Source: Sulfolobales archaeon (GTDB lineage: Archaea > Thermoproteota > Thermoprotei_A > Sulfolobales > NBVN01). Taken from it: DNA of 24,000 bases. Positions 1-19,471 of the stretch are shown in pieces. The notes beneath the pieces are model-generated. The model had not been told where the DNA came from and made no database searches. It saw only the letters and a program-made list of their open reading frames with translations. Location: positions 72,784 to 96,783 of the forward strand of contig JAOAKA010000003.1 in NCBI GenBank assembly GCA_026413885.1, given 5' to 3'. Both the position numbers and the translations under genes were made by a program. Positions within the stretch are counted from its first letter, which is position 1. Each line of letters starts with the position of its first letter.

Positions 1-114
1 TCTCTAAGCAAAATATTGGTAGACCACTGATTACTTCACCCTCTAGAGAAGACAGGAGCTCTCGAGGTACCTCCAACAATACCCGACATTTGAATGTGAC
101 AGTAGATTTAAAAG

Positions 115-642
115 CTATACATAAGTAAGCTCTCCTTCAACAACTCTAGCACACTTCGTATATCTATGCTCAAACTCGTTAGGCGGCACAATATGGATTA
201 CCTTAAACCCTCTGTACAGCAGCCAGTCAGATAGAATCTTTCTGTGGCATCTATAGGGTATCCTCTCACAGCATAGTAGTGCGGCTACTTTATTACTGCA
301 TATATCTAGTAGTCTCTTCAGAGCCTCTCTTGCTTCACTAGATGTGAGTATATATGTTGCGTAAGCTCTAAATCCCTCAGACTTAAAACACCTGCCGATA
401 CCTACATCCACTAGTGTGGAGCCAAAACTTCTAAAGCCGCCTAGCTCTGGAATCCATATGTATCTAATGCCGTTACGTGTAAGCTCTCTGGCTAGACTCT
501 CGGTTGAGTACTGAGGCATTCTTACAGACTTACCCCATCTTCTCACGTCAACTACTACCTCGACACAGTAGTGGAGAATTATAGCTACAAAGTCCTCTAT
601 CTCTAGGGTATCGTAACCTAGAGTGAATACCTCTCGTAGCAC
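115..642 (-). CDS. DUF488-family protein (function unknown)
   Basis: 175-aa ORF. N-terminal pattern TLGY..E.F......VVDVRR and C-terminal CCER-x5-CHR motif (LLCCERIPYRCHRKIL) are typical of DUF488/YeaO-like proteins. Confidence 0.75.
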   Translation of the reverse strand: MLREVFTLGYDTLEIEDFVAIILHYCVEVVVDVRRWGKSVRMPQYSTESLARELTRNGIRYIWIPELGGFRSFGSTLVDVGIGRCFKSEGFRAYATYILTSSEAREALKRLLDICSNKVAALLCCERIPYRCHRKILSDWLLYRGFKVIHIVPPNEFEHRYTKCARVVEGELTYV

Positions 643-4121: not shown

Positions 4122-4352
4122 CTACTTCTTCCGTAGAGTAGCTTCGTAGTAAGTCTCCCTATTCTCCACTCTAATCACTTCGTACCCACTCTTTGAAGCT
4201 ACTAGCTTCAGTATATTTAGCGGTAGGTCGTCTATCGAAGCTATAACGAAGACCTCTGGATCGGCGCCTCTATTTAAGATATTTAAAAACTTAACCATAG
4301 GGTTATCAGTGCAAGACTTAGAGACACCTCTAAGATCTAGAACTCTCACCAT
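4122..4352 (-). CDS. TusA/SirA-like small sulfur-carrier-fold protein (variant active-site loop)
   Basis: 76 aa. LDLRGVSKSCTDNPMVKF aligns with the TusA LDLRG..CP.P motif but carries the variant C-T-D-N-P. Its start overlaps the iscU 3' end by 23 nt. Confidence 0.6.
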   Translation of the reverse strand: MVRVLDLRGVSKSCTDNPMVKFLNILNRGADPEVFVIASIDDLPLNILKLVASKSGYEVIRVENRETYYEATLRKK

Positions 4353-4890
4353 TACTACTACCCTTAGGTATAGTCACTCTTAAATTATAGTTTCTTAAGT
4401 GCCCTGAGTACATTCTCTCGATCATCTGCTCTTCTTCTAGAGTCTGCTTCTCCTCAACGGTTAAGTCGTTAGGTAGCCACTCCGGGTGTCTACCTACCCT
4501 ACTATAGTAGGCTCTAATAGCTCTCTTAAGTGCGCCTACAGCTAGTATACTGCAGTGATACTTAATCGGTGGTAGACCTCCCAATTCGTCAGCAACACTC
4601 TTCCATGAAACTCCCCAAGCTTCCCTCAAGGTCTTACCGGTAATTAAGTCCGTCAAAATACTGGCGGCTGCGATATTAGCAGCACAGCCATAACTCTCAA
4701 AGGTAGCTCTCTCAATAACCTCCTCTCTACTTCCTGCAGATATCTTTAAATACAGTCTAATCATGTCGCCGCAAGCAGGACTTCCAGCAGACTCCACTAT
4801 ATCGGCATCTTCCATTGGACCAACATTTCTAGGATTCTTAAATATCTCCAACACCTTAGGTGTATAGGGCAGCGGTATTCGCGTACTCAT
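4330..4890 (-). CDS. iscU: IscU/NifU-like Fe-S cluster scaffold with a C-terminal extension
   Basis: 186 aa. The three scaffold cysteines are in canonical contexts (SPACGD, SYGCAANIA, KYHCS). About 55 extra C-terminal residues lie beyond the usual core. Confidence 0.9.
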   Translation of the reverse strand: MSTRIPLPYTPKVLEIFKNPRNVGPMEDADIVESAGSPACGDMIRLYLKISAGSREEVIERATFESYGCAANIAAASILTDLITGKTLREAWGVSWKSVADELGGLPPIKYHCSILAVGALKRAIRAYYSRVGRHPEWLPNDLTVEEKQTLEEEQMIERMYSGHLRNYNLRVTIPKGSSNGESSRS

Positions 4891-4966
4891 AGAACCCCCT
4901 ACAGTATATGGCTAGGTTCTTAATAAATCTTTAACACTGTTATAGGTCTTTAATATCTCCCTAATA

Positions 4967-6190
4967 CTACGTCTTTTTAGCCGCACTTATACTTCTCAGT
5001 CTAGATACAGCTCTTGGGACTACTTCTAGAGTGTACTCAATATCTTCTCGATTGTGGTATCGAGTAGTCTTAAAGAGTATGCTACCGTGAGCTTCCTCAT
5101 GTTTTCTCCCAATAGCTAGAAGCACGTGGCTCGGCTCTAAAATTCTTGAACTACAGGCGCTACCACTAGATACATAAACACCGTTAATGCTTAACTCAAC
5201 AGTTAGAGCCTCACCCTCTACATACAAGAAGCTTAAGTTAGCGTTATCTGGAGCTCTCCTACTGAAGTCTATAGGACCGTTCACTAAGACATCTGAAACT
5301 CTATCTGATATACCTTTAATTAGTAGATTCCTCAACTCACTCATTTTAGCTACATGACTATCGAAATTCTCGAAAGCTAACTCAACAGCTTTTCTAAATC
5401 CAGCTATAAGTGGGACGTTCTCGACACCCGGCCACAGTTTTTCAGAGCTTAACTGACCCTTTAGAATTGACTCTAATCTAACCCCCTCTCTAGTGAAGAG
5501 TATTCCAACACCTCTGGGGCCGTGTATCTTATGGCTACTCAACGTCACCATGTCGACATGCTCTAGCTTCTTGAGGTCTATTGCGAGCTTGCCGAAGGCG
5601 TCTGCGGCATCTGTATGAAAAACTACCTCAGAATTTACTTCTTTAGCTATCTTAGAAAGTTCGTAGATATTCTGGATTGTTCCAATCTCATGGTTAACCA
5701 TCTGAATACTGACTAGTGATGTATTTCTATCTATAAGCTCTTTAAAGACCTCCGGGTCTACGAAGCCTTCACTATCTACAGGCACTCTAACTACTTTAAA
5801 TCCGAGCAGTCTCTCAGCTTCTTCAGCTGGATGTATGACACTGAGGTGCTCTATAGCTGATACAACAATCTTTCCCTTTCTCTCTCTACTAGCTAGTGCG
5901 TAACCTAAGACAGCTAAGTTGTTAGCTTCAGTGCCGCTGTGAACTATGGAGAACTCATTTACACTACCGGTGTTCAAGACCTTAGCTAGCGCCTCCTTAG
6001 TCTTATAGACTACTTCGTAAGCCTCCCAGCCCGGTCTGTGGGTAATTGATGGGTGTCCGTAGCCTACAGAGTTGAAGTAGGGGATCATTTCCTCAACAAC
6101 TTCTCTCGGGACATAGCCGGAGTTCTCGTTATCAAAGTAGACTTCTCGAGAAGGTCTTCCGTGAGCTTTAAGTAGTTCTTCTACGGACAC
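4967..6190 (-). CDS. iscS: Cysteine desulfurase (IscS/NifS class, PLP-dependent)
   Basis: 407 aa with GTG start. PLP-lysine motif SSHKIHGPRG and catalytic-cysteine loop SSGSACSS. It lies directly upstream of iscU. Confidence 0.92.
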   Translation of the reverse strand: MSVEELLKAHGRPSREVYFDNENSGYVPREVVEEMIPYFNSVGYGHPSITHRPGWEAYEVVYKTKEALAKVLNTGSVNEFSIVHSGTEANNLAVLGYALASRERKGKIVVSAIEHLSVIHPAEEAERLLGFKVVRVPVDSEGFVDPEVFKELIDRNTSLVSIQMVNHEIGTIQNIYELSKIAKEVNSEVVFHTDAADAFGKLAIDLKKLEHVDMVTLSSHKIHGPRGVGILFTREGVRLESILKGQLSSEKLWPGVENVPLIAGFRKAVELAFENFDSHVAKMSELRNLLIKGISDRVSDVLVNGPIDFSRRAPDNANLSFLYVEGEALTVELSINGVYVSSGSACSSRILEPSHVLLAIGRKHEEAHGSILFKTTRYHNREDIEYTLEVVPRAVSRLRSISAAKKT

Positions 6191-6457
6191 AGACCCCCCT
6201 ATTTAAAGTGGGGATGTCACTTATAAACAGCGTTAAAGCTGTCTATATAGAGCTTGAACACCTAGTACACCTAGACGAATACAGCCAGCGGTTTTTAGTT
6301 CTGACCTCCTCGGAGTACTGAGTGTAAGACTTAACACTAACTAATAGTTGAAGCTACAGATAGCTTTCTACCGATTAATGCTAGTAACTTAACAGTGTGA
6401 GAGCTCTCTGCTGTAAGAACTATGTAGCTGTTAGATCTCTACGTAAATTAACCGTGT

Positions 6458-7594
6458 TTAAGTAGCGATCGCTATATAGAGACCAACAGCTATCAGTGCT
6501 ATACCTCCAGCTAGCTCAACTAGAGCAACTTTATCTATAAATCTCTCAACTAGCTTAATCAGCCTACTCGAAAATATTGAGAAGACTAGATACGGTGCTG
6601 TAAAACCCACTACATAAGTGAACATAAGGAGACCGAGGAGAGCATCAGAGCCTTCAGTAGCCGCCTGAAGTAAGACAAAGTAACCAGCACTACATGGAAC
6701 CGCACTGAGAGATGATAGTGACCCCATTAAGAATGGGAAAAGCTTACCGAATACCGCTGTTAGACCAGCACTAGGTAGGTGGGCTGCGTCTCGACAGGAC
6801 CTCCCACCGAGTAAACAGCCTAACATTCCTCTAGAGTGAAGAATCATGTAGGTCCCGAAGGCTACAATTAAAATCCAGCTAAACGGTTTAACAAACCATA
6901 GAACTCCACGTAGTCCTACCAATATGAGTGAGTACCCCAGTCCCAGACCGAGAACAAATAAGAGGAGTTTAGGTAGAGGATTCCCTATAGCAGAAGTAGA
7001 ATACGATAGCACGAGAGCTGTGTAGAGATACAGAATACACGGACTTAAAGCAGACACAGCTCCGAGAAAGATGGCTCCAGCCACCAATCCTGTAGTGCTG
7101 TAAGTCTCTTTTTTAATATCTCTCAAATAGCACTCTTCTACGTAGTCCCCGAAGAGAGCCTTCTCCCAGTACGTATTACTGTAGAACACACCTATAGAGA
7201 CAGCTATAACTGACGAATTTCTGACGACGAAGACTACCGGGACTTCTGTTATGTATCTATCTTCAACAAACCTACTGAGGAAGTTGACTATCTTCTTAAA
7301 GAAGTCACTGTGTTGAAGTATGTCTACGTAGGTAAACCTATCACCAGGTAGAAGATTTCTCAAATAGCGCTCCATCTCACCGCACTCCGGACATCCGTGA
7401 ATGCCGAAGAAGTATATAGCGCTCTCTCCAAAGAGTGCGGCCATCTCTACAGCTAGCTCTCTAGGTTGTTCAATACATCCAACTACAGACCCTCTGAACA
7501 GCACTGGAATCCCACGGGATTGAGATGAGAGCTCTGGGCTAAGCACCGTCAGCATCAATACGAGCGATAGGAGAGCTACTGCTCGAAGCTCCAT
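6458..7594 (-). CDS. Exported thioredoxin-fold domain (CPEC) fused to a CcdA/DsbD-type thiol:disulfide transporter membrane domain
   Basis: 378 aa. Signal-like N-terminus, then a Trx-like domain with CPEC, then multiple TM helices with the two CcdA-type cysteines (LSPCILY and VPCSAGY). Confidence 0.75.
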   Translation of the reverse strand: MELRAVALLSLVLMLTVLSPELSSQSRGIPVLFRGSVVGCIEQPRELAVEMAALFGESAIYFFGIHGCPECGEMERYLRNLLPGDRFTYVDILQHSDFFKKIVNFLSRFVEDRYITEVPVVFVVRNSSVIAVSIGVFYSNTYWEKALFGDYVEECYLRDIKKETYSTTGLVAGAIFLGAVSALSPCILYLYTALVLSYSTSAIGNPLPKLLLFVLGLGLGYSLILVGLRGVLWFVKPFSWILIVAFGTYMILHSRGMLGCLLGGRSCRDAAHLPSAGLTAVFGKLFPFLMGSLSSLSAVPCSAGYFVLLQAATEGSDALLGLLMFTYVVGFTAPYLVFSIFSSRLIKLVERFIDKVALVELAGGIALIAVGLYIAIAT

Positions 7595-8208
7595 TACTTC
7601 CTCCTCTTAATGAAAGCATACACCACTATAGACACTCCTGCGGCGATCAATACTATAGGAACTAGAGTGTATGAGCTGAAGATCTCTGTGGGTGTCGCAG
7701 TCTCCTTCGGAGTAGCTGCTGCTATATACTTACTCACTATCTCATATTGCTCGCTGAATGAAATAGGTATCTCGTAGGCGTTTGGTGGAACAACTAGTAG
7801 AACCCTCTCCTGAGGACCTCTCGAGGTTAAATTCCTCCAGAACTGAGTGTCTGTAACAGCACCTACTACTATTGCTAGTAGATACCTCCCATCTCTCACT
7901 ACGTATGTCTGAGGTATGCCTTCGAGATGTTTTTGTGAAACGCCTTTACTTATTAAAAGACTTCTCACAGAGTTAAAACTAGTTCTACAGCTCTCTAGAA
8001 CATCTACTTTACAGAAGTGGTAACTGCCTGAGTAGGTCTGACTTAGGAATTGATCTAGAGTCCGGCAGTGTGGGCACCAAGTAGCTCCGTAGAGATAGAG
8101 ATAGATGCTGCTGCCCGAGATTGAAATCGGTAATACCGCAGTAACAACTAACGCAGTAAGCAATACGCAAGCTACCAGAGTGTTTCGAGCAGCCACAGCG
8201 CGCACCAA
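7594..8208 (-). CDS. Membrane-anchored thioredoxin-fold protein with DsbA-like WCPHC active site
   Basis: 204 aa with TTG start. N-terminal signal/anchor, WCPHC motif, C-terminal TM helix plus KRRK. Its Trx-fold domain looks paralogous to the N-terminal domain of 6458..7594. There is a 1-nt overlap with that gene. Confidence 0.7.
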   Translation of the reverse strand: MVRAVAARNTLVACVLLTALVVTAVLPISISGSSIYLYLYGATWCPHCRTLDQFLSQTYSGSYHFCKVDVLESCRTSFNSVRSLLISKGVSQKHLEGIPQTYVVRDGRYLLAIVVGAVTDTQFWRNLTSRGPQERVLLVVPPNAYEIPISFSEQYEIVSKYIAAATPKETATPTEIFSSYTLVPIVLIAAGVSIVVYAFIKRRK

Positions 8209-8267
8209 TGTCTCTGTGGAATGAGATCTAAAAAGCGTTGAAGTCCTCTACCTACGAGGTGCTTCTG

Positions 8268-8798
8268 CTATCTCACTAGGAAGTATCTGAATGCCTTAAT
8301 ATTTAGATCAATCCACTCCCTCGACACTATCTCCTCAATGACTTTCTCAATAGCTTCAGGAGTAACTATAGACGTTATCTTGACTAAGTGTCCTAGAGCC
8401 ACTATATTCGCTACTCTACTACTGCCTATCTCTCTTTCTGCGATATCTGTGTAAGGCTCTAGATATATCCTCCAATTTCTCTGCGGTATGTTAGTGATAT
8501 TGGATTTATCGAGAAATACTGTAGCACCATCTCTCACTAAGTCTCTATATGCGTCTAACTGGAGTTGATGCATAAATAGAGCTATATCTGCTTTCGCAAC
8601 TTTAATGAAGTCAGCTTCTTCTTCTCTATCAGCTACTACAAGATCTACTCTAGAATCACCACCTCTAGTTTCAGCTGCGTAGATTTCGCTGCCGAGTACA
8701 TGTAGATCTGTGTATTTAGCTATCGCCGCACCCAGTATGTGTCCTAGAAGTAGGATCCCCTGACCACCTCTTCCAGCAATCAATACCTCAACTCTCAC
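8268..8798 (-). CDS. 2-oxoacid:ferredoxin oxidoreductase, gamma subunit
   Basis: 176 aa. GRGGQGILLLGHILG motif typical of OFOR gamma subunits. Last gene of a delta-alpha-beta-gamma operon. Confidence 0.9.
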   Translation of the reverse strand: MRVEVLIAGRGGQGILLLGHILGAAIAKYTDLHVLGSEIYAAETRGGDSRVDLVVADREEEADFIKVAKADIALFMHQLQLDAYRDLVRDGATVFLDKSNITNIPQRNWRIYLEPYTDIAEREIGSSRVANIVALGHLVKITSIVTPEAIEKVIEEIVSREWIDLNIKAFRYFLVR

Positions 8799-9640
8799 AC
8801 CGCACCACCTCCAAATGATTTAGATATATACTCACGGTAAGTATCGAGAAAGCCGGGCTCATCTCTATCTACAAACTCACCTATTACGAATCCCCTACCC
8901 CAGTCGTAGTCACTCTCCTCGATAGATGGATTAGTCTTCACGGTAACTTTCTTCTTGAGCTCCATATAGAGGTCGACCGGATTTCTCAGCCCTATATGTC
9001 TCCCGAAGATCTCCGGACACGTAGAGAGGACTTCCACGAAGGCTAGTCCACGCTTAGCGAGAGCTTTATAGATAGTTCTCTCAAGCAGTTGTGGATGTGT
9101 TATAGAGCTTCTAGCAACGTAGTTAGCTCCTAGAGCTGCTGCTAGTTTAATCACGTTTAACTCTCTCTCAGGGTTTCCGTAGGGAGTGGTCGTTGTATAG
9201 AGTCCTCTAGGTGTTGTAGGTGCTAGCTGCCCACCGGTCATACCGTAGGTCATGTTGTTGACCATTATCACTAGGAGGTCTGCGTTTCGCTTTAAAGCGT
9301 GCAGTAGGTGGTTCCCACCGATAGCAGCTATATCTCCATCTCCTCCTACAATAACCATCTTCATTTCTGGTTTAACTACTTTAACTGCTATTGCGAATGG
9401 AATAGCTCTTCCGTGGATTACGTGTGCGGAATCAAAGTACGGATATAGAGTCATTCTAGCAGTACACCCAATGCCGCCGACGAATGCTATGTTCTCTTTT
9501 TTAAGTAGGCCTTCCTCTATTCTTCTATCTATAGCTCTCAGTATAGCACCTAGAGCTATCCCCAGGCCGCAGCCTGGACACCACATTGTCGGTATTCTAT
9601 CTACTCTCAGGTAGGGGTCTAGTGGGTGTGTTACAGCCAC
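8795..9640 (-). CDS. 2-oxoacid:ferredoxin oxidoreductase, beta (TPP-binding) subunit
   Basis: 281 aa. WCPGCG, GIGC and GGDGD TPP/Fe-S motifs. 4-nt overlap with gamma. Confidence 0.92.
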   Translation of the reverse strand: MAVTHPLDPYLRVDRIPTMWCPGCGLGIALGAILRAIDRRIEEGLLKKENIAFVGGIGCTARMTLYPYFDSAHVIHGRAIPFAIAVKVVKPEMKMVIVGGDGDIAAIGGNHLLHALKRNADLLVIMVNNMTYGMTGGQLAPTTPRGLYTTTTPYGNPERELNVIKLAAALGANYVARSSITHPQLLERTIYKALAKRGLAFVEVLSTCPEIFGRHIGLRNPVDLYMELKKKVTVKTNPSIEESDYDWGRGFVIGEFVDRDEPGFLDTYREYISKSFGGGAV

Positions 9641-10755
9641 TTATCGACCACCCCAACTACTTCTTGAGGTAGAGGTACATCTAAATCTATAAGTGGAACA
9701 CTGACTACGTCTCTATCTTTTAGAATACCTCTCAGCTCTCTGTAGTAGAGCCCTACGTTGTTCTCGACTACAAACACTTTCTCGACGTTCTTCAGTAGCT
9801 TAGAGATGCCTTCTTCATATATTGGAAATAGTGTTTTAAGCTTAAGTGAGCACGCGCGAACACCTCTCTCTCTGAGTGTTTTAGCAGCTACCTGAGTTGA
9901 GAGAGCTGTAGATCCGTAGGAAACTAGAGCTACATCGCAGTCATCTAGATATAGAGATGAGTAGTCGAATAGCTTCCCAGAGCTCTCAGTGATCTTTCTA
10001 TACAGTCTCCACATAAGTTTTCTCTGGGCGTCCGATCTAGGTGCGTAGTAGCCTCTCTCATCGTGAGTTAGTGACTCTACTAGAACACTATATCCTTCAC
10101 CAAAGCAAGCCATTGGAGGCACTAATCCATCCACCGGGTCGTAGGGTCTATACTCACTCAATGGTGTTGAAGGCTTGCTGCGGTCTACTATCTCTACCTC
10201 ACTTCTCTCTCTAATAGCTACTTTTCCATATGTGTGAGCAACTACCGCATCTGAGAGGAGAACTACTGGAGTTCTCAGCTTCTCCGATATGTTGAAGGCC
10301 TTAACCGTCAAGTCGTATGCTTCCTGTGGTGTAGACGGTGCTAGCACCGGTATCACTAAGCCTCCGTGAAAACCGTAGGTACTCTGCAGTACGTCGTATT
10401 GACCGGACCTAGTTGGAACACCTGTCGATGGGCCGGTCCTCATGACGTAGGCTACAACAAGCGGGGTTTCAGTTATTACTGCTAGACTGAGAGCTTCAAG
10501 CATTAGTGAGAAACCTGGACCACTAGTTGCTGTCATAGCTTTCGCGCATGCCCAGGAAGCTCCTACGACAGCGTTTATTGAGGCTATCTCATCTTCAAAT
10601 TGTATGACGTGTCCTCCGTACTTCGGTAGCTCTCTAGCTAGGTGTTCGAATATATCTGAAGTAGGTGTTATCGGATATCCTGCGTAGAACTTGAGTCCGG
10701 AGACTATCGAGGCTTCAGCGATAGCTATATTTCCAGTTAGATACTCGTACCTCAA
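9631..10755 (-). CDS. 2-oxoacid:ferredoxin oxidoreductase, alpha subunit
   Basis: 374 aa with TTG start. N-terminus GN.AIAEA...G..FYAGYPITPTS is typical of KorA/PorA-type alpha subunits. Confidence 0.92.
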   Translation of the reverse strand: MRYEYLTGNIAIAEASIVSGLKFYAGYPITPTSDIFEHLARELPKYGGHVIQFEDEIASINAVVGASWACAKAMTATSGPGFSLMLEALSLAVITETPLVVAYVMRTGPSTGVPTRSGQYDVLQSTYGFHGGLVIPVLAPSTPQEAYDLTVKAFNISEKLRTPVVLLSDAVVAHTYGKVAIRERSEVEIVDRSKPSTPLSEYRPYDPVDGLVPPMACFGEGYSVLVESLTHDERGYYAPRSDAQRKLMWRLYRKITESSGKLFDYSSLYLDDCDVALVSYGSTALSTQVAAKTLRERGVRACSLKLKTLFPIYEEGISKLLKNVEKVFVVENNVGLYYRELRGILKDRDVVSVPLIDLDVPLPQEVVGVVDKWL

Positions 10756-10757
10756 CG

Positions 10758-11012
10758 CTAACCAGCCTCTACAAATATTGCGAAATCCGGGCAGCTGTAC
10801 TCACACATTTTACATCCAATGCATTTATCGGGATATGCCGGCACTACATATCTATAGCCTCTCCTATTTCTACTATCACCTCTCGCTAGAACTTTAGTTG
10901 GGCATACAGCTACACATATCCCACACTCCTTACATCTCTCAGTTATGACGTTAATTGCGTACTTACTGCTTTTCGTCTTTATAAGCGTGGCTGCTGGTGT
11001 ACTCAGCTTCAT
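10758..11012 (-). CDS. 2-oxoacid:ferredoxin oxidoreductase, delta subunit (2x[4Fe-4S] ferredoxin-like)
   Basis: 84 aa. Two CxxCxxCxxxCP motifs (CKECGICVAVCP, CIGCKMCEYSCP). The delta-alpha-beta-gamma order resembles archaeal 2-oxoglutarate-type (KOR) operons, but substrate cannot be read from the sequence. Confidence 0.9.
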   Translation of the reverse strand: MKLSTPAATLIKTKSSKYAINVITERCKECGICVAVCPTKVLARGDSRNRRGYRYVVPAYPDKCIGCKMCEYSCPDFAIFVEAG

Positions 11013-11475: not shown

Positions 11476-11581
11476 TCACCGAGTTATTGCTTCGGTAGGT
11501 CTTTCTTTTAAAAACGCTTATTCGTTGCTAGTCTGGGTTAGGTGTTATTAAGCTGAGGTAGCTATATCTATGTGAGGAGCT

Positions 11582-12394
11582 GTGTGTTGGGGTGTTTTAG
11601 GGAAGCTTTTAATGGTTGACGGTGTTGAAGGTGAAGTTGAAGTTGGGGGGGCTACTGTTAGAGCTCTTGTAGCTATTGATGACGTTAAGCCGGGTGATGT
11701 AGTTTTAGTTCACGCTGGTGTTGTTATAGAGAAGTTAGATAGAGAGAGTGTTCTAGCTAATCTAGCTGTATACTACGACTTAGTTAAATATCACTACGTA
11801 TTTAATGGATTCAGTGAGGGTGAGGCTGGTGAGAGAGCTAGAGAGGAGCTCGCTAAGCTGGCTCGAGATCTAGGGGTTTCCGAGGGGGAAGTCTTGGCGG
11901 CTCTCACCGAGGGCTCTGGAAAGGTAGTTCGAGAGAGTATTGAGCAAGTAGAGATTCCTGAAGAAGCCTTCTACATCGACTACACAATTCAGCTAGCTGA
12001 AACAGACTATCTTCAAGTAACACACTACAGCAACTACCTGAGAGTCTGTGAGAGAGCCTTCATGTCTATGCTGGCTAGCGCAGGCACCAGCTACAGCAGA
12101 CTCATACACGAATACGGAGTCTTCATACCTACAGTAGAAGTTAGCGCTAAGATAAAATCACCCTCAAGACTAGACAACACACTGAGAGCATACGTCTGGA
12201 TAGAGGAAATAGGAAGAAAACACTTAAAATACAGATGCTTAATCTACAATCAAACAACCAAGAAACTAGCAGCAGACATAACCCACATAGCCGTATGCAC
12301 AGACACAGCAATAACAACAAGCCACGAAATACCGAAAGAAATAAAAACAACACTCGAAAAACTAGCAGCTAAAAAATCAAACACAAAACAATAA
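11582..12394 (+). CDS. HypC/HupF-like domain fused to a 4HBT/YbgC-type hotdog thioesterase domain
   Basis: 270 aa with GTG start. Residues 1-~75 (MCWGVLGKLLMVDG...PGDVVLVHAGVVIEKLD) align with HypC (Met-Cys N-terminus, GD.VLVH.G). Residues ~125-255 (YIDYTIQLAETDYLQVTHYSNYLRVCERAF...) match the hotdog thioesterase signature. The ORF is uninterrupted. Confidence 0.8.
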   Translation: MCWGVLGKLLMVDGVEGEVEVGGATVRALVAIDDVKPGDVVLVHAGVVIEKLDRESVLANLAVYYDLVKYHYVFNGFSEGEAGERAREELAKLARDLGVSEGEVLAALTEGSGKVVRESIEQVEIPEEAFYIDYTIQLAETDYLQVTHYSNYLRVCERAFMSMLASAGTSYSRLIHEYGVFIPTVEVSAKIKSPSRLDNTLRAYVWIEEIGRKHLKYRCLIYNQTTKKLAADITHIAVCTDTAITTSHEIPKEIKTTLEKLAAKKSNTKQ

Positions 12395-12395
12395 A

Positions 12396-14735
12396 CCTTC
12401 AATTCTATCATTTAGATTCACTCAAAAAATTGGAGATAGAAGTAAAAAGATTTATAGAACTTTCAATTCTATCGTTTAGATTCCCATGTATGTCTCCGTA
12501 TGTATCTGTATGTAAAACATATATACTTTCAATTCTATCGTTTAGATTCGCTCGTGGTAGCGGCAGGCAGACCGAGGTTGAACCCTATAGCTTTCAATTC
12601 TATCGTTTAGATTCCTGATTAACTACACCATCTAGCTGTAACCTTTCTACGTAAACTTTCAATTCTATCGTTTAGATTCGTGTTTCTAGCTACTAGACCG
12701 TTCCAGCAGTCGAGCCTCAAGCTTTCAATTCTATCGTTTAGATTCCAAGGACTTCTTCTCGTTGATTTGGGGGATGCTGAGCCTTGTTGCTTTCAATTCT
12801 ATCGTTTAGATTCAAGTGGAAAACGTATATAATATAGGGAGTAAGGTAATAACCTTTCAATTCTATCGTTTAGATTCATAACAAAGAGGAGAAAATGAAA
12901 ATATTCAATAACATCGACTTTCAATTCTATCGTTTAGATTCAGAAAGCTCTTCGGCGGTTATTACACGCCGCGTAGTGACTTTCAATTCTATCGTTTAGA
13001 TTCCGAAATTATAATTCTCTACATAGGCAATGGTATACCATCCTTTCAATTCTATCGTTTAGATTCAGATCTTAGAAGAGCTCAGAAAACTACTATCAGA
13101 GAAACTTACTTTCAATTCTATCGTTTAGATTCACGAAGCACTCGAAGCTGGACTACATCATAACGTACACACTTTCAATTCTATCGTTTAGATTCCCGCT
13201 TCGCGAATTAGCTAACTCCGTCACGCGTGTGATTCTTTCAATTCTATCGTTTAGATTCTCTGCAGAAAAGCAAAACCAAGAATGTTGCGTGAAATATTAG
13301 CTTTCAATTCTATCGTTTAGATTCGAAAAAGAGAGAGTTGGGGGGGAACAGGAACCGAACACCTCTTTCAATTCTATCGTTTAGATTCGGGGAGGACGGA
13401 GTGCTTCAGGTTGGGGGAGATTAAGGAGACTTTCAATTCTATCGTTTAGATTCTGGTGGTGGTATAATTGAACCCTCTGGACTCCCTCAGATTCGACTTT
13501 CAATTCTATCGTTTAGATTCGAGCAAGATAAAAACAATGGTGAAGGAGAGATTAAAGGCTAAACTTTCAATTCTATCGTTTAGATTCGGAAATTAATAAT
13601 AAAGTAGAAAGACTGAGGCTCGTGTTCTTTCAATTCTATCGTTTAGATTCCCGCAGCGAACAAAGACATAATGGGTAATGTAATTGTCGTCCTTTCAATT
13701 CTATCGTTTAGATTCATGAACCTGATCAAGAACTTCAGCAGCAAAGTTAAATCGATGCTTTCAATTCTATCGTTTAGATTCTAAGTGTAACACGTTTTTT
13801 ACATATATTTTCACATACGAGCTTTCAATTCTATCGTTTAGATTCAATACATTTATCTTGGTCGTGAACAGTTACAGTTACCCTTCCGATCTTTCAATTC
13901 TATCGTTTAGATTCATAAAGTTAAATGCTCCCTACAAACTGTTACATCTGGTGCTCTTTCAATTCTATCGTTTAGATTCCGTTGACCGCCAACAAGGACG
14001 TAGTCACCTACCTCGCGAGACTTTCAATTCTATCGTTTAGATTCAAACATGTTGAGAGAATTGTTGAAGTCAGTTGAGGGCGAGCTGCTTTCAATTCTAT
14101 CGTTTAGATTCTGGGTGGGGGCACGCCGTACTCCTCGGACTTCCTCGCGTCTTTCAATTCTATCGTTTAGATTCGGAGGCGTAGGCGGTGTTGGTAGGGG
14201 TACTGTGATATCCGGCCTTTCAATTCTATCGTTTAGATTCCACAATTCTTCTTTTTTCCGCCCCGTTGGAACTTGATGACTGCTTTCAATTCTATCGTTT
14301 AGATTCGCTAAGGCGGGGGTGATGGTGTAGTGCTAGCAGCGTACGGCTTTCAATTCTATCGTTTAGATTCACTCATAACCTCTCTCAATAAACTTGCTGT
14401 TAACGTATCTGACTTTCAATTCTATCGTTTAGATTCACTAGGACACAGAGCTCCCTATCTCTAAATAGAGACGGTGGTGCTTTCAATTCTATCGTTTAGA
14501 TTCAGGTCTACTTTTATCGAGGTGATAGGTGGTGGCTGAGATAAGCTTTCAATTCTATCATTTAGATTCACGCGTTCAGGGCTGCGTACGGCTACGTCCC
14601 CCTAGACCTCTTTCAATTCTATCGTTTAGATTCCGCAGTTGTAGACGGTAACCTCCCCGGTCGTCCACACCTCGATCTTTCAATTCTATCGTTTAGATTC
14701 TGTGTTTTGTTTTTCTTTCTCTATCGTTTAGATTC
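12396..14735 (-). CRISPR. CRISPR array: 36 full 24-nt repeats plus one truncated leader-proximal copy, 35 spacers of 38-45 nt
   Basis: The repeat reads CTTTCAATTCTATCGTTTAGATTC on the plus strand. Repeat starts: 12396, 12460, 12526, 12591, 12656, 12722, 12790, 12854, 12918, 12980, 13043, 13109, 13172, 13235, 13301, 13365, 13430, 13497, 13564, 13627, 13692, 13758, 13822, 13891, 13956, 14021, 14088, 14151, 14217, 14283, 14347, 14413, 14480, 14546, 14610, 14677. The reverse complement GAATCTAAACGATAGAATTGAAAG ends in ATTGAAAG, the 8-nt crRNA 5' handle known from crenarchaeal Cas6 processing, so transcription is on the minus strand from the leader at 14736 onward. The far-end repeat (12396) is degenerate with 2 mismatches. 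The repeat at 14546 has G->A at position 15. Confidence 0.98.
14715..14735 (-). repeat. Truncated CRISPR repeat (3-nt internal deletion) abutting the leader
   Basis: CTTTC---TCTATCGTTTAGATTC: the consensus lacking AAT (ATT on the transcribed strand), which destroys the ATTGAAAG handle. It is separated from the last intact repeat by only 14 nt (14701-14714). Confidence 0.85.
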
Positions 14736-15173: not shown

Positions 15174-16082
15174 TTGTTTTTAGTCTCGGTAGTGTTCGGT
15201 GTCTTCGTGGTTGTGAGGACTGAGGTTTTGCTTAAGTGGTTGAGGGTTTTGAGGTCTCTTGCTGAGGGCTACCCGGTTGAGTCTGAGTTGAGGGGTTGGT
15301 CCTGGCAGTTCCCACCGGTTAGGCCGAGGTCCTATCTGGGGCTAGCGGTTCAGGACGCGGCTTCCTACTGTCCGACGAAGCGCGATGTCTGGTTGAGGAG
15401 AGTTGCCGGTGTTAGAGTTCAGCCTACACCCTCTATGAAGCTGGGTTCAGTTGTTCACGATGTAGTATTCTCAGTTGTATCTGTAGTTAGGAAGTACGTT
15501 AGTGTGGGTTTAGACTTCGAGAAGCTCTCTAGAGCTATCGGTAGAGCTATTGAGTTAAAGAGTCGTGAGTGTCCTTCAGATGAGTGTGTTAAGATAGCTA
15601 GGAGCATCGGGTGGCTGACGTACTACACAGCTACCTCAGAGTGGCTTTGGTCGAGTAGTGGGGTGATACCGACACCGGCAACAGCAGCTCTCAGTGAGGT
15701 GAGAGTTGATGGGTCACCGATAGGGTTGAGCAGCAGCTTGAGAATAGACTCACTACCGATTCCAAACGTAGTTGTCGATATAAAGACAGGTAGGAAAACC
15801 GAGGTACACGAACTATCGCTAGCAGCATACGCACTAGCTCTCGAATCAACACTAGAAACACCGGTAGACTTCGGGATACTGGTCTACGTATGGTGGAATA
15901 GCAGCCTACAGGTAGATATAAGAGGGGTTTACATAGGTCCAGACTTAAGAAGGGTTTTTCTAGACTCGAGAGATGAGGCTATAGACATCGTGCTATCGAG
16001 AAGAGAACCACCGAAAGCAGCTGAGTGCCCTCAGACATGTCCATACCTAGAGGTATGTGAACATGAAAATACTCGTAGTTAG
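15174..16082 (+). CDS. csa1: Csa1 (Cas4-like RecB-family nuclease of type I-A adaptation modules)
   Basis: ORF-track coordinates. One N-terminal Cys (SYCPTKRD), DIKTG(RK) nuclease motif, C-terminal Cys cluster CPQTCPYLEVC. Position is first in a csa1-cas1-cas2-cas4 operon. The true start is probably GTG 15207 or 15213, because the first 11 codons are T-rich and hydrophobic and lie under a TATA-like box. Confidence 0.85.
   Translation: MFLVSVVFGVFVVVRTEVLLKWLRVLRSLAEGYPVESELRGWSWQFPPVRPRSYLGLAVQDAASYCPTKRDVWLRRVAGVRVQPTPSMKLGSVVHDVVFSVVSVVRKYVSVGLDFEKLSRAIGRAIELKSRECPSDECVKIARSIGWLTYYTATSEWLWSSSGVIPTPATAALSEVRVDGSPIGLSSSLRIDSLPIPNVVVDIKTGRKTEVHELSLAAYALALESTLETPVDFGILVYVWWNSSLQVDIRGVYIGPDLRRVFLDSRDEAIDIVLSRREPPKAAECPQTCPYLEVCEHENTRS
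15176..15182 (+). promoter_or_regulatory. Candidate TATA box (GTTTTTA) for a leaderless csa1 transcript
   Basis: Centred about 28 nt upstream of the in-frame GTG codons at 15207 and 15213. The same heptamer occurs three times in the leader. Confidence 0.3.
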
Positions 16083-17049
16083 CGGATACGGAGTGAAGAT
16101 ATCGGTTAAGAAAGACTCTATAGTGTTGAAAACTAGGGAGGGAACTAGTAATATATCTCTAAGTGAAGTAGACTGTGTTACAGTAACTACCTCGGGAGTC
16201 TCCATAACGTCTAAAGCTATAAGGTACTTCACGAAGCTGGGGGTAATGCTAGTACTTCTAGACTCGAGAGGAATGCCCGCAGCAGTACTCCACCACCCAT
16301 TCACAACTAGAACAGTAAGCACTAGAAGAGCTCAGTATGAAGCTCTCCACAGCGGTAGAGCTGAGGAAGTTGTTAAAGCAGTAGCAGTTTCTAAGCTGGG
16401 AAATCAAGCAGGACTTCTGAGAAAACTGAGGAGAGAACTGAGAGTTAGTGAGCTAGCTGAAGTAGAGCAAAAAATACTGGAGCTAGCTAGTAGTGTAGCT
16501 AAAATCAAAAATAAGACATTGAGTGAGCTAAGAACTGAGGTGATAAATACTGAAGCCACATCTGCGAGACACTACTGGTCAGCTCTAGCTTCAGTACTAC
16601 CGAAGGACCTGGGGTTCGACGGCAGAGATCAGGAGGGCTGTGACGTAGTTAACTGCGCTCTCAACTACGGCTACGGAATTCTGTACTCAGCTATTTGGAG
16701 GTACCTATCGATACACGGTCTAGACCCTTACGCAGGATTTCTCCACGCAGATAGGTCTGGGAAACCTGTTCTAACATTCGATGTAGTAGAGGTATTTAGA
16801 GTACCAGCGGTAGACTTCCCGGTCGTTAGAGCTTTAAGACAGGGTGTGAAACTCGAAGTAAGAAACTGCCTTCTAGACCGCGAGTCTAGAGCTAGAGTAG
16901 TCTCGCTAGCAGCTAGAGCTATGAGAGAAAAATACTCTGCGTATGGAGAGGTGAGAGAGCTAGAGAGCTGGGTAAGTAATTTCACGTCATCACTAGCTTC
17001 CTACCTTAGAGGTGAGGTCCAGCTGAAGCCTCTAGTATTTAGGTGGTAG
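16057..17049 (+). CDS. cas1: Cas1 integrase
   Basis: 330 aa. Typical N-terminus (MKILVVSGYGVKISVKKDSIVLK), ALNYGYGILYS, and DPYAGFLHADRSGKPVLTFDVVEVFR with the conserved His/Asp. ATG 16063 is the more likely start. Confidence 0.95.
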   Translation: MNMKILVVSGYGVKISVKKDSIVLKTREGTSNISLSEVDCVTVTTSGVSITSKAIRYFTKLGVMLVLLDSRGMPAAVLHHPFTTRTVSTRRAQYEALHSGRAEEVVKAVAVSKLGNQAGLLRKLRRELRVSELAEVEQKILELASSVAKIKNKTLSELRTEVINTEATSARHYWSALASVLPKDLGFDGRDQEGCDVVNCALNYGYGILYSAIWRYLSIHGLDPYAGFLHADRSGKPVLTFDVVEVFRVPAVDFPVVRALRQGVKLEVRNCLLDRESRARVVSLAARAMREKYSAYGEVRELESWVSNFTSSLASYLRGEVQLKPLVFRW

Positions 17050-17342
17050 CTGTGAGAGTCCTCGTAGTGTACGATATATCAGATAACTTCATTAGAGAGG
17101 AATTCGCTAGAAAGCTGAAGCAGTTAGGGCTGGAGAGAATTCAGAGATCGTGTTTTCTAGGTAGAGGTGGTGTAGAGCTAGTGAAAACAGTGATTAGAGC
17201 TGCTGAGAGAACTGTGGAGGTAGGGAGAGACGTAGTTCACGTATTCCTCCTCGACGAGTACAGCTTTAAAAATATGAAGCACGTAGGCAGGCCCTTCAAC
17301 TGGAGGAGAGTCGAGGGAGTTGATTACGTTGGTGACTACTGA
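17043..17342 (+). CDS. cas2: Cas2
   Basis: 99 aa. The VLVVYDISDN... ferredoxin-fold N-terminus is typical of Cas2. It overlaps the cas1 stop. GTG 17052 is an alternative start. Confidence 0.9.
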   Translation: MVAVRVLVVYDISDNFIREEFARKLKQLGLERIQRSCFLGRGGVELVKTVIRAAERTVEVGRDVVHVFLLDEYSFKNMKHVGRPFNWRRVEGVDYVGDY

Positions 17343-17880
17343 ACGTAGATATGTAACATCCTGGGATGTAAAGGAGTACGTTTACTGTCCAGTGATAGTC
17401 TGGATTAAACACGTATTAAACGTAGAGGAACCACCGGACTTCAACATGATCTTCGGGAGTTCTAAAGTATACCGCCAAGATATTCTGGAGAGAGTGGGTC
17501 TACCGAAGCCCTGGTCTTTCGAGGTCTCCCTCAGAAACTCGTCTAGAGGTATTGCGGGAGTTGTAGATGTTATTGGAGGCTGTAGTAGATATGAGGTAGT
17601 AGAGCTTAAAGCATTTCGGAGGTGGAGCTACAGTCACTTCAGAATTCAGCTAATGTTTTACGCATACTTAGTATCTACTACAGTAGGACCAGTTACTAGA
17701 GCCCACCTAGTTCTCGAAGACAGAGTGAGAACTTACTCAGTGAATAACCACGCTATAAGAGATGTCGAGTGGGTTATTGAGAGAGTTAGAGAGATCAGAG
17801 ATTCTGAGAAACCTCCGCAGGTGCTTCAGAGTAGAAAGTGTCGCTTGTGTTGGTATAGAAGGTACTGCCCTAGTGTTTGA
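17320..17880 (+). CDS. cas4: Cas4 (RecB-like exonuclease with Fe-S cysteines)
   Basis: 186 aa. N-terminal Cys (YVYCPV), D...E.K nuclease core (VVDVIGG...YEVVELKAF), QLMFYAYL, and C-terminal C-x2-C-x5-C (CRLCWYRRYC). The start is uncertain (TTG 17320 or GTG 17332). Confidence 0.9.
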   Translation: MITLVTTERRYVTSWDVKEYVYCPVIVWIKHVLNVEEPPDFNMIFGSSKVYRQDILERVGLPKPWSFEVSLRNSSRGIAGVVDVIGGCSRYEVVELKAFRRWSYSHFRIQLMFYAYLVSTTVGPVTRAHLVLEDRVRTYSVNNHAIRDVEWVIERVREIRDSEKPPQVLQSRKCRLCWYRRYCPSV

Positions 17881-17885
17881 GGTGT

Positions 17886-17895
17886 GTTTATATGT
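17886..17895 (+). promoter_or_regulatory. TATA-like box (GTTTATATGT) for csa3
   Basis: Centred about 33 nt upstream of the csa3 ATG at 17923, in the 42-nt gap after cas4. This implies csa3-cas6 can be transcribed independently with a very short 5' UTR. Confidence 0.45.
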
Positions 17896-17922
17896 ATTGC
17901 TTAGAGAGTTCTGTGGAGACTT

Positions 17923-18561
17923 ATGGGGAGAGTATTCATAATGCCGCTAGGTTTTCACGAAGATAGAGCTATGAGGATGTTCATAGAGAACTCAGTTACT
18001 GAGAGAGACAGAGTCTACATAATAACTGCGAATAAGACTCTGTCGGTTGTGAGAGCCTATGAGTCACTAGTTGCTTTTTGCAGAAAAATAAGACTCCCAG
18101 ATCCAGAGCTCGTTGAAGTACCTATGGATTTATCCGGCGGTATTAGCAGGATTCTGCAGATCTTGAGGGAGACTGATGGAGAGGTCGTTGTAGATTTATC
18201 GAGAGGTATGAGGTACCTCATAGTGTACACTCTAATCGCACTGCTTCTATCTAATCGAACAGCAACGATACACATACAGCCGGAGAGTGGTGAAGCTACT
18301 GAGATAGTGATTCCAAAGCAGCTTCTTGAAGTTGCTAGAAACCCTCCGAGAGGTTTATACATTGAAATACTGAGAGTAGTTAGCGAGAGTGAGGGAGCTT
18401 CAGTAGAGGAGATATCGAGAGCACTAGGTAAGTCTGCTAAGACAGTCACTAACTGTCTTACAAAACTCGGTAAGCTCAAGCTGGTCTCGAGGAGGGGAAG
18501 AGAGAGAGGCATCTACTTAACCGATCTCGGTAAGTTGGTGCTAACACTTACCGGTGGTTAA
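17923..18561 (+). CDS. csa3: Csa3-type CRISPR-associated transcriptional regulator (CARF domain + winged HTH)
   Basis: 212 aa. The N-terminal Rossmann-like start VFIMPLGFHEDRAMR is typical of Csa3 CARF domains. The C-terminal wHTH is EILRVVSESEGASVEEISRALGKSAKTVTNCLTKLGKLKLVSRR. Confidence 0.85.
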   Translation: MGRVFIMPLGFHEDRAMRMFIENSVTERDRVYIITANKTLSVVRAYESLVAFCRKIRLPDPELVEVPMDLSGGISRILQILRETDGEVVVDLSRGMRYLIVYTLIALLLSNRTATIHIQPESGEATEIVIPKQLLEVARNPPRGLYIEILRVVSESEGASVEEISRALGKSAKTVTNCLTKLGKLKLVSRRGRERGIYLTDLGKLVLTLTGG

Positions 18562-19471
18562 AATGATGGTGCAGGTAGTTAAGATAGGTGTTACACCTAC
18601 TGCGGACTGTGTAGCTCCACCGGCTACTTCTAAAATAATGAAGTACTGCTTTGGAGAAGCTATACCTAGAAAGATCTCCAGTAGCATCGTCAATGTATCT
18701 ATCTCAATGCTCTTTGAAGGACGTAGAGCACTGTACTCTACAGAAGGAAAAAAGAGTCCGGTAGTGCTGAAAGCCGGTAAGACATATTCCGGTAGAGTGA
18801 CTATCGTAGATTCTTCAACAGAGTTCATAGAGAGAGTCAATAAGCTGGGACTAGACTCGTTTGTGTGTGATTCTGTCTACGGAGTATTTCACATATCGAT
18901 CTCGGAAATCGAGGTGACACCACTAGAGAAAGTCGACATGGAACTCCCCAAAGTGTTTAAAGTAGTATTCAACACCCCGACAATACTGAACTCCAAGCTT
19001 ATGTCACCCCCACCACTAGCTGATAAAGTAGCAGCAACACATAAGCTAATTCCTCAGCCATCCTTTATCTTCTCACACCTCCTCAGATTCTGGAATACCT
19101 ACGCACCACCAGAGCATAAGCTGGGAAAACCTAGTGAGTGGGCGCCCTACTTACTCGGAAGAATGGCTGACATATCTCTAGTAGAGCTAGACTACAGAGT
19201 TAGAGCTGTGACTGCGATAGTAGGTAAAGACGACAGAGGGAGGCTCAGAAAGTCTAGAGGCTTCGTAGGCTGGGTAATATACGAATCGAAAGCCAATAAA
19301 AAACTCCACAGCATAGTATCTAAACTACTAGCACTAGCATCGCTCGTAGGCGTGGGAAGGTCTAGAGGAATAGGGTTTGGACACGTCTCTATAGAGATTC
19401 CGAGTAAACCTGTTGAAGAGCGAGAGTCCCCATCTGAAAACAGAGCAGATGCAGTGGCTAGAAAGCTGTGA
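18554..19471 (+). CDS. cas6: Cas6 crRNA-processing endoribonuclease
   Basis: 305 aa in the ORF track; ATG 18563 or 18566 is the more likely start, just after the csa3 stop. It has the C-terminal glycine-rich Cas6 loop GVGRSRGIGFGHVSIE and sits in a cas context. Confidence 0.85.
   Translation: MVKMMVQVVKIGVTPTADCVAPPATSKIMKYCFGEAIPRKISSSIVNVSISMLFEGRRALYSTEGKKSPVVLKAGKTYSGRVTIVDSSTEFIERVNKLGLDSFVCDSVYGVFHISISEIEVTPLEKVDMELPKVFKVVFNTPTILNSKLMSPPPLADKVAATHKLIPQPSFIFSHLLRFWNTYAPPEHKLGKPSEWAPYLLGRMADISLVELDYRVRAVTAIVGKDDRGRLRKSRGFVGWVIYESKANKKLHSIVSKLLALASLVGVGRSRGIGFGHVSIEIPSKPVEERESPSENRADAVARKL

Follow-up and report, generated by a model that had tools for sequence, protein, structure and literature searches.

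HypC is a small chaperone on which the iron centre of [NiFe]-hydrogenase is carried while the enzyme is assembled. Plain HypC suffices for most organisms that possess such a hydrogenase, and an additional domain on the chaperone is therefore not generally required. The hotdog thioesterases of the YbgC/4HBT class are obligate dimers or tetramers, and their catalytic residue is the second Asp of a DTD motif (D18 in YbgC, D17 in the Pseudomonas 4HBT). Described proteins of the HypC/HybG/HupF family (2z1c and 3vyr-3vyu from T. kodakarensis, 2ot2 from E. coli) are 75-90 aa long, start with Met-Cys, carry a conserved His and consist of an OB-barrel followed by a helix. The YbgC/FadM and 4HBT enzymes (5v10, 1s5u/5t06, 1z54, 1lo7) share the hotdog fold, an Asp at the catalytic position within (D/E)-T-D, an E-R-A motif in the central helix and a C-x-D strand.

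One further protein is close in idea to what is described below. HypX is the CO-ligand synthase of aerobes and converts formyl-THF via formyl-CoA into CO (Schulz et al. 2020, summarised in PMC12134894). A 2025 review names the anaerobic origin of the CO ligand as the most pressing question of the field and discusses formyl-CoA as a candidate (PMC12134894). Native MS of E. coli HypC has revealed Cys2-dependent adducts of +26 Da and +28 Da, read by the authors as possibly acetyl-derived and formyl, and the same authors suggest that the CO precursor may first bind Cys2 (PMC10847431).

The window analysed here, a stretch of 24,000 nucleotides from a Sulfolobales archaeon, encodes a 270-aa protein in which a HypC domain is followed by a two-helix extension, a flexible linker and a complete hotdog domain. 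Our search of the published literature for a HypC-hotdog or HypC-thioesterase fusion found no paper. We consider it probable that the protein is the organism's working HypC joined to a catalytically competent hotdog domain, and that it acts as a bifunctional maturation factor with thioester acyl chemistry at the scaffold.

Architecture and reading frame of the fusion

Translation of positions 11582-12394 (+) bore out a single uninterrupted ORF of 270 codons plus stop, as the first-pass annotation of this DNA had reported; the ORF starts with GTG. An in-frame TGA at 11573-11575, read directly from the sequence, closes the frame upstream, and the GTG at 11582 is therefore the first possible start. 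A GAGGAG run at 11574..11579 (+), 3-8 nt 5' of the GTG and overlapped by the TGA, resembles a Shine-Dalgarno sequence and may serve as one.

The HypC domain spans residues 1-74 (11582..11803, +), as delimited by PF01455, the matches to PDB entries 2z1c and 3vyr and the secondary structure of the AF2 model; its hallmark residues Cys2 and His44 are encoded at 11585-11587 and 11711-11713 (+). It is followed by the two-helix extension, residues 75-110 (11804..11911, +), and by the flexible linker of ~10-20 residues, placed at 111-129 (11912..11968, +), which is marked by gappy, unconserved alignment columns and is variable in both length and sequence. The hotdog domain of the YbgC/4HBT thioesterase class occupies residues 130-262 (11969..12367, +), on the combined evidence of Pfam, the alignment with 5v10 and Foldseek. 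Two acidic residues discussed below, Glu140 and Asp142, are encoded at 11999-12001 and 12005-12007 (+).

That a HypC domain is fused to a hotdog domain had been proposed from the letters alone, together with a suggestion of profile searches, and both halves score above curated Pfam thresholds: HupF_HypC (PF01455) matches residues 1-63 with 47.6 bits (gathering cut-off 28.5), 4HBT_2 residues 138-255 with 39.8 bits (cut-off 25.5) and 4HBT residues 145-229 with 38.5 bits (cut-off 20.6). The fusion gene also passed the PF01455 cut-off in a scan of the whole genome. The more stringent NCBIfam cut-offs were missed by both halves. The HypC half reached 32.8 bits against a cut-off of 48 for TIGR00074, in a match that spans model positions 1-70 of 80, so that the low score reflects divergence and not truncation. 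The hotdog half obtained 46.7 bits for the YbgC/FadM subfamily model TIGR00051 (cut-off 68.7) and 39 for the YbgC equivalog model TIGR02799 (cut-off 141), and these scores place it within the superfamily without making it an equivalog of YbgC. Comparison of the family profile with PDB sequences retrieved the YbgC-like thioesterase 5v10 (E 6e-17) and the HypC structures 2z1c (T. kodakarensis, E 1e-14) and 3vyr (E 1e-14 to 1e-13 for the two), the sequence match to 2z1c covering residues 1-69.

Structure prediction, likewise suggested in the first-pass annotation, gave the barrel and helix of HypC as well as the hotdog fold. The AF2 model, built on 30 family members, has a mean pLDDT of 82.6 and a pTM of 0.55, the geometry between the domains being without confidence. 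A five-stranded beta-barrel at residues 5-51 (strands 5-13, 16-21, 24-30, 40-44 and 47-51) leads into the canonical HypC helix at 54-74. Helices at 79-97 and 101-110 follow, then residues 111-121, which are disordered (pLDDT <50), and finally the hotdog domain at 130-261, with pLDDT mostly 82-95 over residues 150-260. Foldseek aligned the hotdog domain with 5v10, 1s5u, 1z54 and 4k00 at target TM-scores of 0.86-0.93 (E 2e-12). The helical extension returned only insignificant HTH matches in the Pfam search (E 0.11-0.14) and no named fold.

Separate translation of the hotdog half was considered and rejected: the linker codons contain no in-frame ATG, GTG or TTG, and the earliest internal Met, M163, lies within a helix of the hotdog domain.

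Distribution, origin and genomic context

Among 5.8 billion protein clusters searched, 31 share this architecture, with identities of 36-73%. A scan in which each prokaryotic species was represented by one genome located 24 archaeal loci; all encode an intact fusion, in six cases confirmed by direct translation. The 24 assemblies are labelled Sulfolobales/Desulfurococcaceae, 'Nitrososphaerota'/Geoarchaeota and Hadarchaeota/Hadesarchaea, with one Hodarchaeaceae. Such proteins are rare: when 1.84 billion representative proteins were scanned exhaustively with HMMER, only ~4 full-length fusion clusters at 50% identity emerged. The first-pass annotation had proposed looking for the same fusion in other Thermoprotei, and among 351 genomes of the class the full-length form is confined to three genera of the window's family, where it is present in every genome (10/10, including that of the window, 2/2 and 1/1).

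The architecture looks like an extended HypC to which a linker and a hotdog domain were added. Stand-alone HypC proteins of 100-135 aa, encoded next to hypD in several other families of Thermoprotei, match the family model from position 1 to 100..115 (ORFs of 101-141 aa), that is, over the HypC domain and the helical extension. They are 36-50% identical to residues 1-110 of the fusion and, unlike it, have neither linker nor hotdog domain. Stand-alone thioesterases are well separated from the fused hotdog domains (E 1e-28 or weaker for the former, 1e-43 for the latter), and when 31 fused and 103 stand-alone domains were placed in one tree, a single origin of the fused group was not rejected (p-AU 0.94).

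These data bear on the idea of a neutral fusion, in which a housekeeping acyl-CoA thioesterase became joined to hypC by chance and the two halves function independently. Stand-alone relatives of the hotdog domain do exist in other families of the class, at seven loci with 29-35% identity and with no hyp genes within ~8 kb; we therefore rejected these homologues as hyp-linked orthologues. The gene also adjoins genes for an acyl-CoA-producing 2-oxoacid:ferredoxin oxidoreductase in the window's genus. A chance fusion nevertheless seems very unlikely to us, since the fusion persists in several lineages that are deeply separated, travels with hypD, carries hotdog domains that group tightly and at a distance from the stand-alone enzymes and lacks a start codon in its linker from which the second half could be expressed. 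A natural split version was not found either. The sole candidate, a 152-aa thioesterase-only protein (P0032), is a gene cut by the contig end and is followed by hypE and hypF.

The first-pass annotation had noted the absence of hyp and hydrogenase genes, which holds for the window, while the rest of the genome contains both. This genome (1.32 Mb, 23 contigs, 89% complete) encodes hypA, hypD, hypE and hypF and three [NiFe] large subunits, each with the RxCGxC and DPCxxC motifs, and the fusion gene is its one HypC-family match. At 89% completeness a small stand-alone hypC could sit in the missing part; none was detected in 12 related genomes. The single HypC-type match is the fusion in all 13 fusion-bearing genomes of the family, each of which also has hypD, and in four of five distant genomes, giving 17 of the 18 genomes examined overall.

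Gene order points in the same direction. The fusion begins 30-35 nt after hypD in both sister genera within the family and lies directly 3' of hypD in 16/16 loci of more distant lineages (L034-L043, L045-L049). Three loci have the order hdrA-mvhD-mvhG-mvhA-hycI-hypD-fusion-hypE-hypF. The examination of neighbourhoods and of co-occurrence with hypD, which had been recommended at the outset, thus places the orthologues in the hypC slot.

Two doubts raised in the first-pass annotation can be judged against this background, namely that two neighbouring genes had been merged by error, or that the protein is a moonlighting HypC paralogue outside hydrogenase maturation. The window's lack of hyp genes and a sharp switch in composition inside the ORF (see below) would fit one or the other. 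The stop codon between the halves that the annotation had envisaged in orthologues is absent from all 24 loci, and with the frame open in 24 independent assemblies it is very unlikely that a stop or frameshift was missed; a merged-gene or frameshift artefact was accordingly rejected. The paralogue idea finds no support in a protein that is the sole HypC of a genome with hypA, hypD, hypE, hypF and three large-subunit genes, and that in other lineages sits directly behind hypD, in the position of hypC. We regard artefact or unrelated paralogue as extremely improbable.

In the window's own genus the gene is unlinked from hypD and lies outside the hyp operon. This location and the NCBIfam cut-offs missed by both halves were counted against the reading of the protein as a working HypC with a competent hotdog domain. 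In nine of nine loci of the genus type, the fusion gene sits beside a four-subunit 2-oxoacid:ferredoxin oxidoreductase operon and a thioredoxin/DsbD pair, with iscS-iscU also nearby where the locus reaches that far. The synteny is suggestive because the oxidoreductase makes acyl-CoA. A second reason comes from E. coli, where the Isc machinery is proposed to supply HypC with iron (PMC10847431). The arrangement belongs to a single clade and does not constitute independent evidence.

Active site and proposed role of the hotdog domain

The HypC half retains its hallmarks throughout the family. All full-length members carry the MCWGV N-terminus, and His44, within a V-H-x-G motif, is conserved in at least 90% of them. 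The hotdog half is more conserved still: the 31 invariant alignment columns of the family all fall within residues 138-251, and distant orthologues are 47-61% identical in the hotdog domain compared with 40-49% over the whole protein.

In the profile alignment with 5v10, the family motif L-(S/A)-(D/E)-T-D aligns with Y-E-D-T-D of YbgC-type enzymes. D142, invariant in 30/30 aligned members, pairs with the second Asp of E-D-T-D and Glu140 with the first. The first-pass annotation had placed Glu at the position of the catalytic Asp; this was wrong, as the catalytic position is that of D142, and Glu140 occupies the non-catalytic first position, where most members outside the window's genus-level group have Asp. 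Polar residues around the catalytic Asp are also fixed (T141, D142, Y143, Q145, H148, N151, E157, R158, H176 and D241), and the E-R-A motif and C-x-D strand of the YbgC/4HBT class are both present, so far as the sequence goes apparently an intact thioesterase. The protein differs from YbgC in being fused to HypC and in lacking a tol-pal context. An invariant Y143-L144-Q145 moreover stands where YbgC has A-G-G after its catalytic Asp, a hint that the substrate pocket has changed and may be smaller.

An Asp at the catalytic position and a fixed ring of polar residues make a passive appendage unlikely. As the most conserved part of the protein, the hotdog domain has probably kept the ability to bind or cleave a thioester at the HypCD scaffold. 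A purely structural role has nevertheless to be weighed, in which the hotdog interface would join at least two HypC units or stabilise the chaperone against heat, catalysis being irrelevant. It is consistent with the obligate oligomerisation of the class, with the occurrence of the fusion mostly in MAGs whose labels point to archaea of hot springs, vents or the subsurface, and with the existence of relatives that have the helical extension without a hotdog domain. This explanation leaves the catalytic-position Asp and the surrounding polar invariance unaccounted for in lineages that are 40-49% identical overall, and we judge it unlikely.

Our preferred reading, a working HypC with a competent hotdog domain, suggests the following sequence of events, in which the initial steps are modelled on established HypC biology. 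After removal of the initiator Met, Cys2 would bind iron together with HypD, HypE and HypF would add the two cyanides, and HypC would then pass the Fe(CN)2CO group on to each of the three large subunits. The hotdog domain, tethered by the flexible linker beyond the two-helix extension, would bind a CoA or protein-Cys thioester at HypCD and cleave or transfer a small acyl group there. Its most likely task would be the loading or trimming of an acyl or formyl adduct on Cys2 of HypC. Hotdog domains pair, and the fusion should therefore also dimerise the chaperone.

Whether such chemistry could extend to the CO ligand is a matter of speculation, and the removal of off-pathway acyl adducts from Cys2 is a candidate alternative. 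In its explicit form, the proposal would make the hotdog domain the anaerobic counterpart of HypX: the acyl group of formyl- or acetyl-CoA would be transferred to Cys2 or decarbonylated, and CO delivered to the HypCD iron. The open origin of CO in anaerobes, with formyl-CoA under discussion (PMC12134894), and the formyl and possibly acetyl-derived adducts on Cys2 (PMC10847431) make room for it, and a domain of the CoA-thioester type tethered to that same cysteine is the kind of link that such proposals would predict. That no other part of this bona fide HypC is as conserved as the hotdog domain gives the connection better ground, and a smaller pocket around Y143-L144-Q145 might suit a small acyl group.

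Several points tell against this proposal. The likeness to HypX is one of idea only, that of a maturation-linked protein acting on a CoA thioester beside the HypCD scaffold. HypX is a separate protein of aerobes with a formyltransferase and a crotonase-fold part, whereas the fusion has no sequence or fold relationship to it, and Pfam and NCBIfam scans of the fusion found neither the HypX-type formyltransferase nor the crotonase-fold domain. Fusion-bearing genomes also differ in carrying Mvh/Hdr-type hydrogenase operons and 2-oxoacid:ferredoxin oxidoreductases. Enzymes of the YbgC class hydrolyse thioesters, which would give formate and not CO. Being so rare (~4 clusters among 1.84 billion proteins), the fusion cannot be a general anaerobic route to CO. 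We accordingly hold an anaerobic HypX counterpart to be rather doubtful. The same tentative standing applies to a related version, a dedicated anaerobic CO-ligand module that would take an acyl group of one or two carbons off a CoA thioester, place or process it at the protein's own Cys2 and so deliver the carbonyl to the HypCD iron.

The fusion, lying in hyp operons of Mvh/Hdr-type archaea as the only HypC, offers a defined protein with which to address the thioester hypothesis. If the CO-ligand proposal were true, it would be a natural 'Rosetta stone', and the anaerobic route to CO would also run via a thioester. Even with a hotdog domain that is just structural or editing, the protein shows a core maturation factor in a new architecture. 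Databases label these proteins as plain HypC, often with a start placed downstream of the essential Cys, an annotation that the present finding would correct.

Codon usage along the ORF

The fraction of G+T at third codon positions drops from ~0.73 at the 5' end of the ORF to 0.07 at the 3' end, averaging 0.61 in the first half and 0.18 in the second. The difference of 0.43 between the halves exceeds that of every other ORF in the genome with 200 aa or more (857 ORFs; mean 0.014, sd 0.066). Two sister-genus orthologues (L036 and L039) display the same gradient, which is absent from most others, and the switch leaves the verdict on the fusion unaffected. Long-range mRNA pairing between the G/T-rich 5' half and the A/C-rich 3' half was unsupported, with a native MFE of -208 kcal/mol compared with -202 +/- 6 kcal/mol when synonymous codons were shuffled within each half. 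A CRISPR array ends 1 nt after the stop codon, and antisense read-through from this array combined with a transcription-associated mutation bias is a possible cause of the switch.

Genomic contexts of the fusion gene

In three loci from more distant lineages (L034, L035 and L038), the HypC–hotdog fusion gene is embedded in the same complete hydrogenase and maturation operon. At L034 (3478-14181) this operon encodes an HdrA-like protein, MvhD, the small and large hydrogenase subunits, the HycI protease, HypD, the fusion protein, HypE and HypF, with the hydrogenase and maturation genes all transcribed in one direction. The hydrogenase of these operons is group-3c-like. The setting in the window's genus is an iscU, iscS, DsbD-like membrane protein, thioredoxin-like protein and four-subunit 2-oxoacid:ferredoxin oxidoreductase cluster, located on the minus strand at 4330-11012 of the window. 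The cluster and the fusion gene are syntenic in all nine genus-type loci (L026-L033 and L044), being inverted in two of the nine.

Related HypC forms

Other families of the class encode a stand-alone HypC of 101-135 aa, adjoining hypD, that carries the helical extension and lacks the hotdog domain (L056:7356-7763, L058:5554-5880, L059:8459-8764 and L060:5380-5685), and the fusion probably derives from this extended HypC. Among the five distant genomes tested, only that holding locus L045 (G354) has a HypC-type sequence besides the fusion. This second sequence (contig C18, 12436-12626) is broken across two frames of 43 and 36 aa; either decay of a stand-alone hypC or an error in sequencing could explain this. 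A short family member of 216 aa, P0031 (L065:899-1549), is devoid of the helical extension, and downstream of its gene are ndk, an FeS-assembly-P gene and a nifU-like gene.

Start codon and codon usage of the fusion gene

The database version of the fusion protein (P0001, 260 aa) begins at Met11 (ATG, 11612-11614) and thus lacks the essential Cys2; several orthologues are also annotated from residue 5 or later. The conserved MCWGV and an upstream GAGGAG favour GTG 11582 as the start.

Codon usage follows a strong gradient within the fusion ORF (11582-12394): third-position G+T is ~0.73 at its 5' end and declines to only 0.07 at its 3' end. The half-to-half difference of 0.43 ranks first among 857 ORFs of this genome of at least 200 aa each (genome standard deviation 0.066). 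The gradient is also present in the orthologues at L036 and L039, and is absent from most others. Long-range mRNA pairing does not account for it. A CRISPR array (window about 12396-14700) starts 1 nt past the fusion-gene stop codon, followed by cas genes (15174-19471), and one idea is that antisense read-through from this adjoining array could cause the gradient. The gene at 15174-16082 likewise has an intragenic third-position G+T shift (0.26), the fifth largest in the genome.
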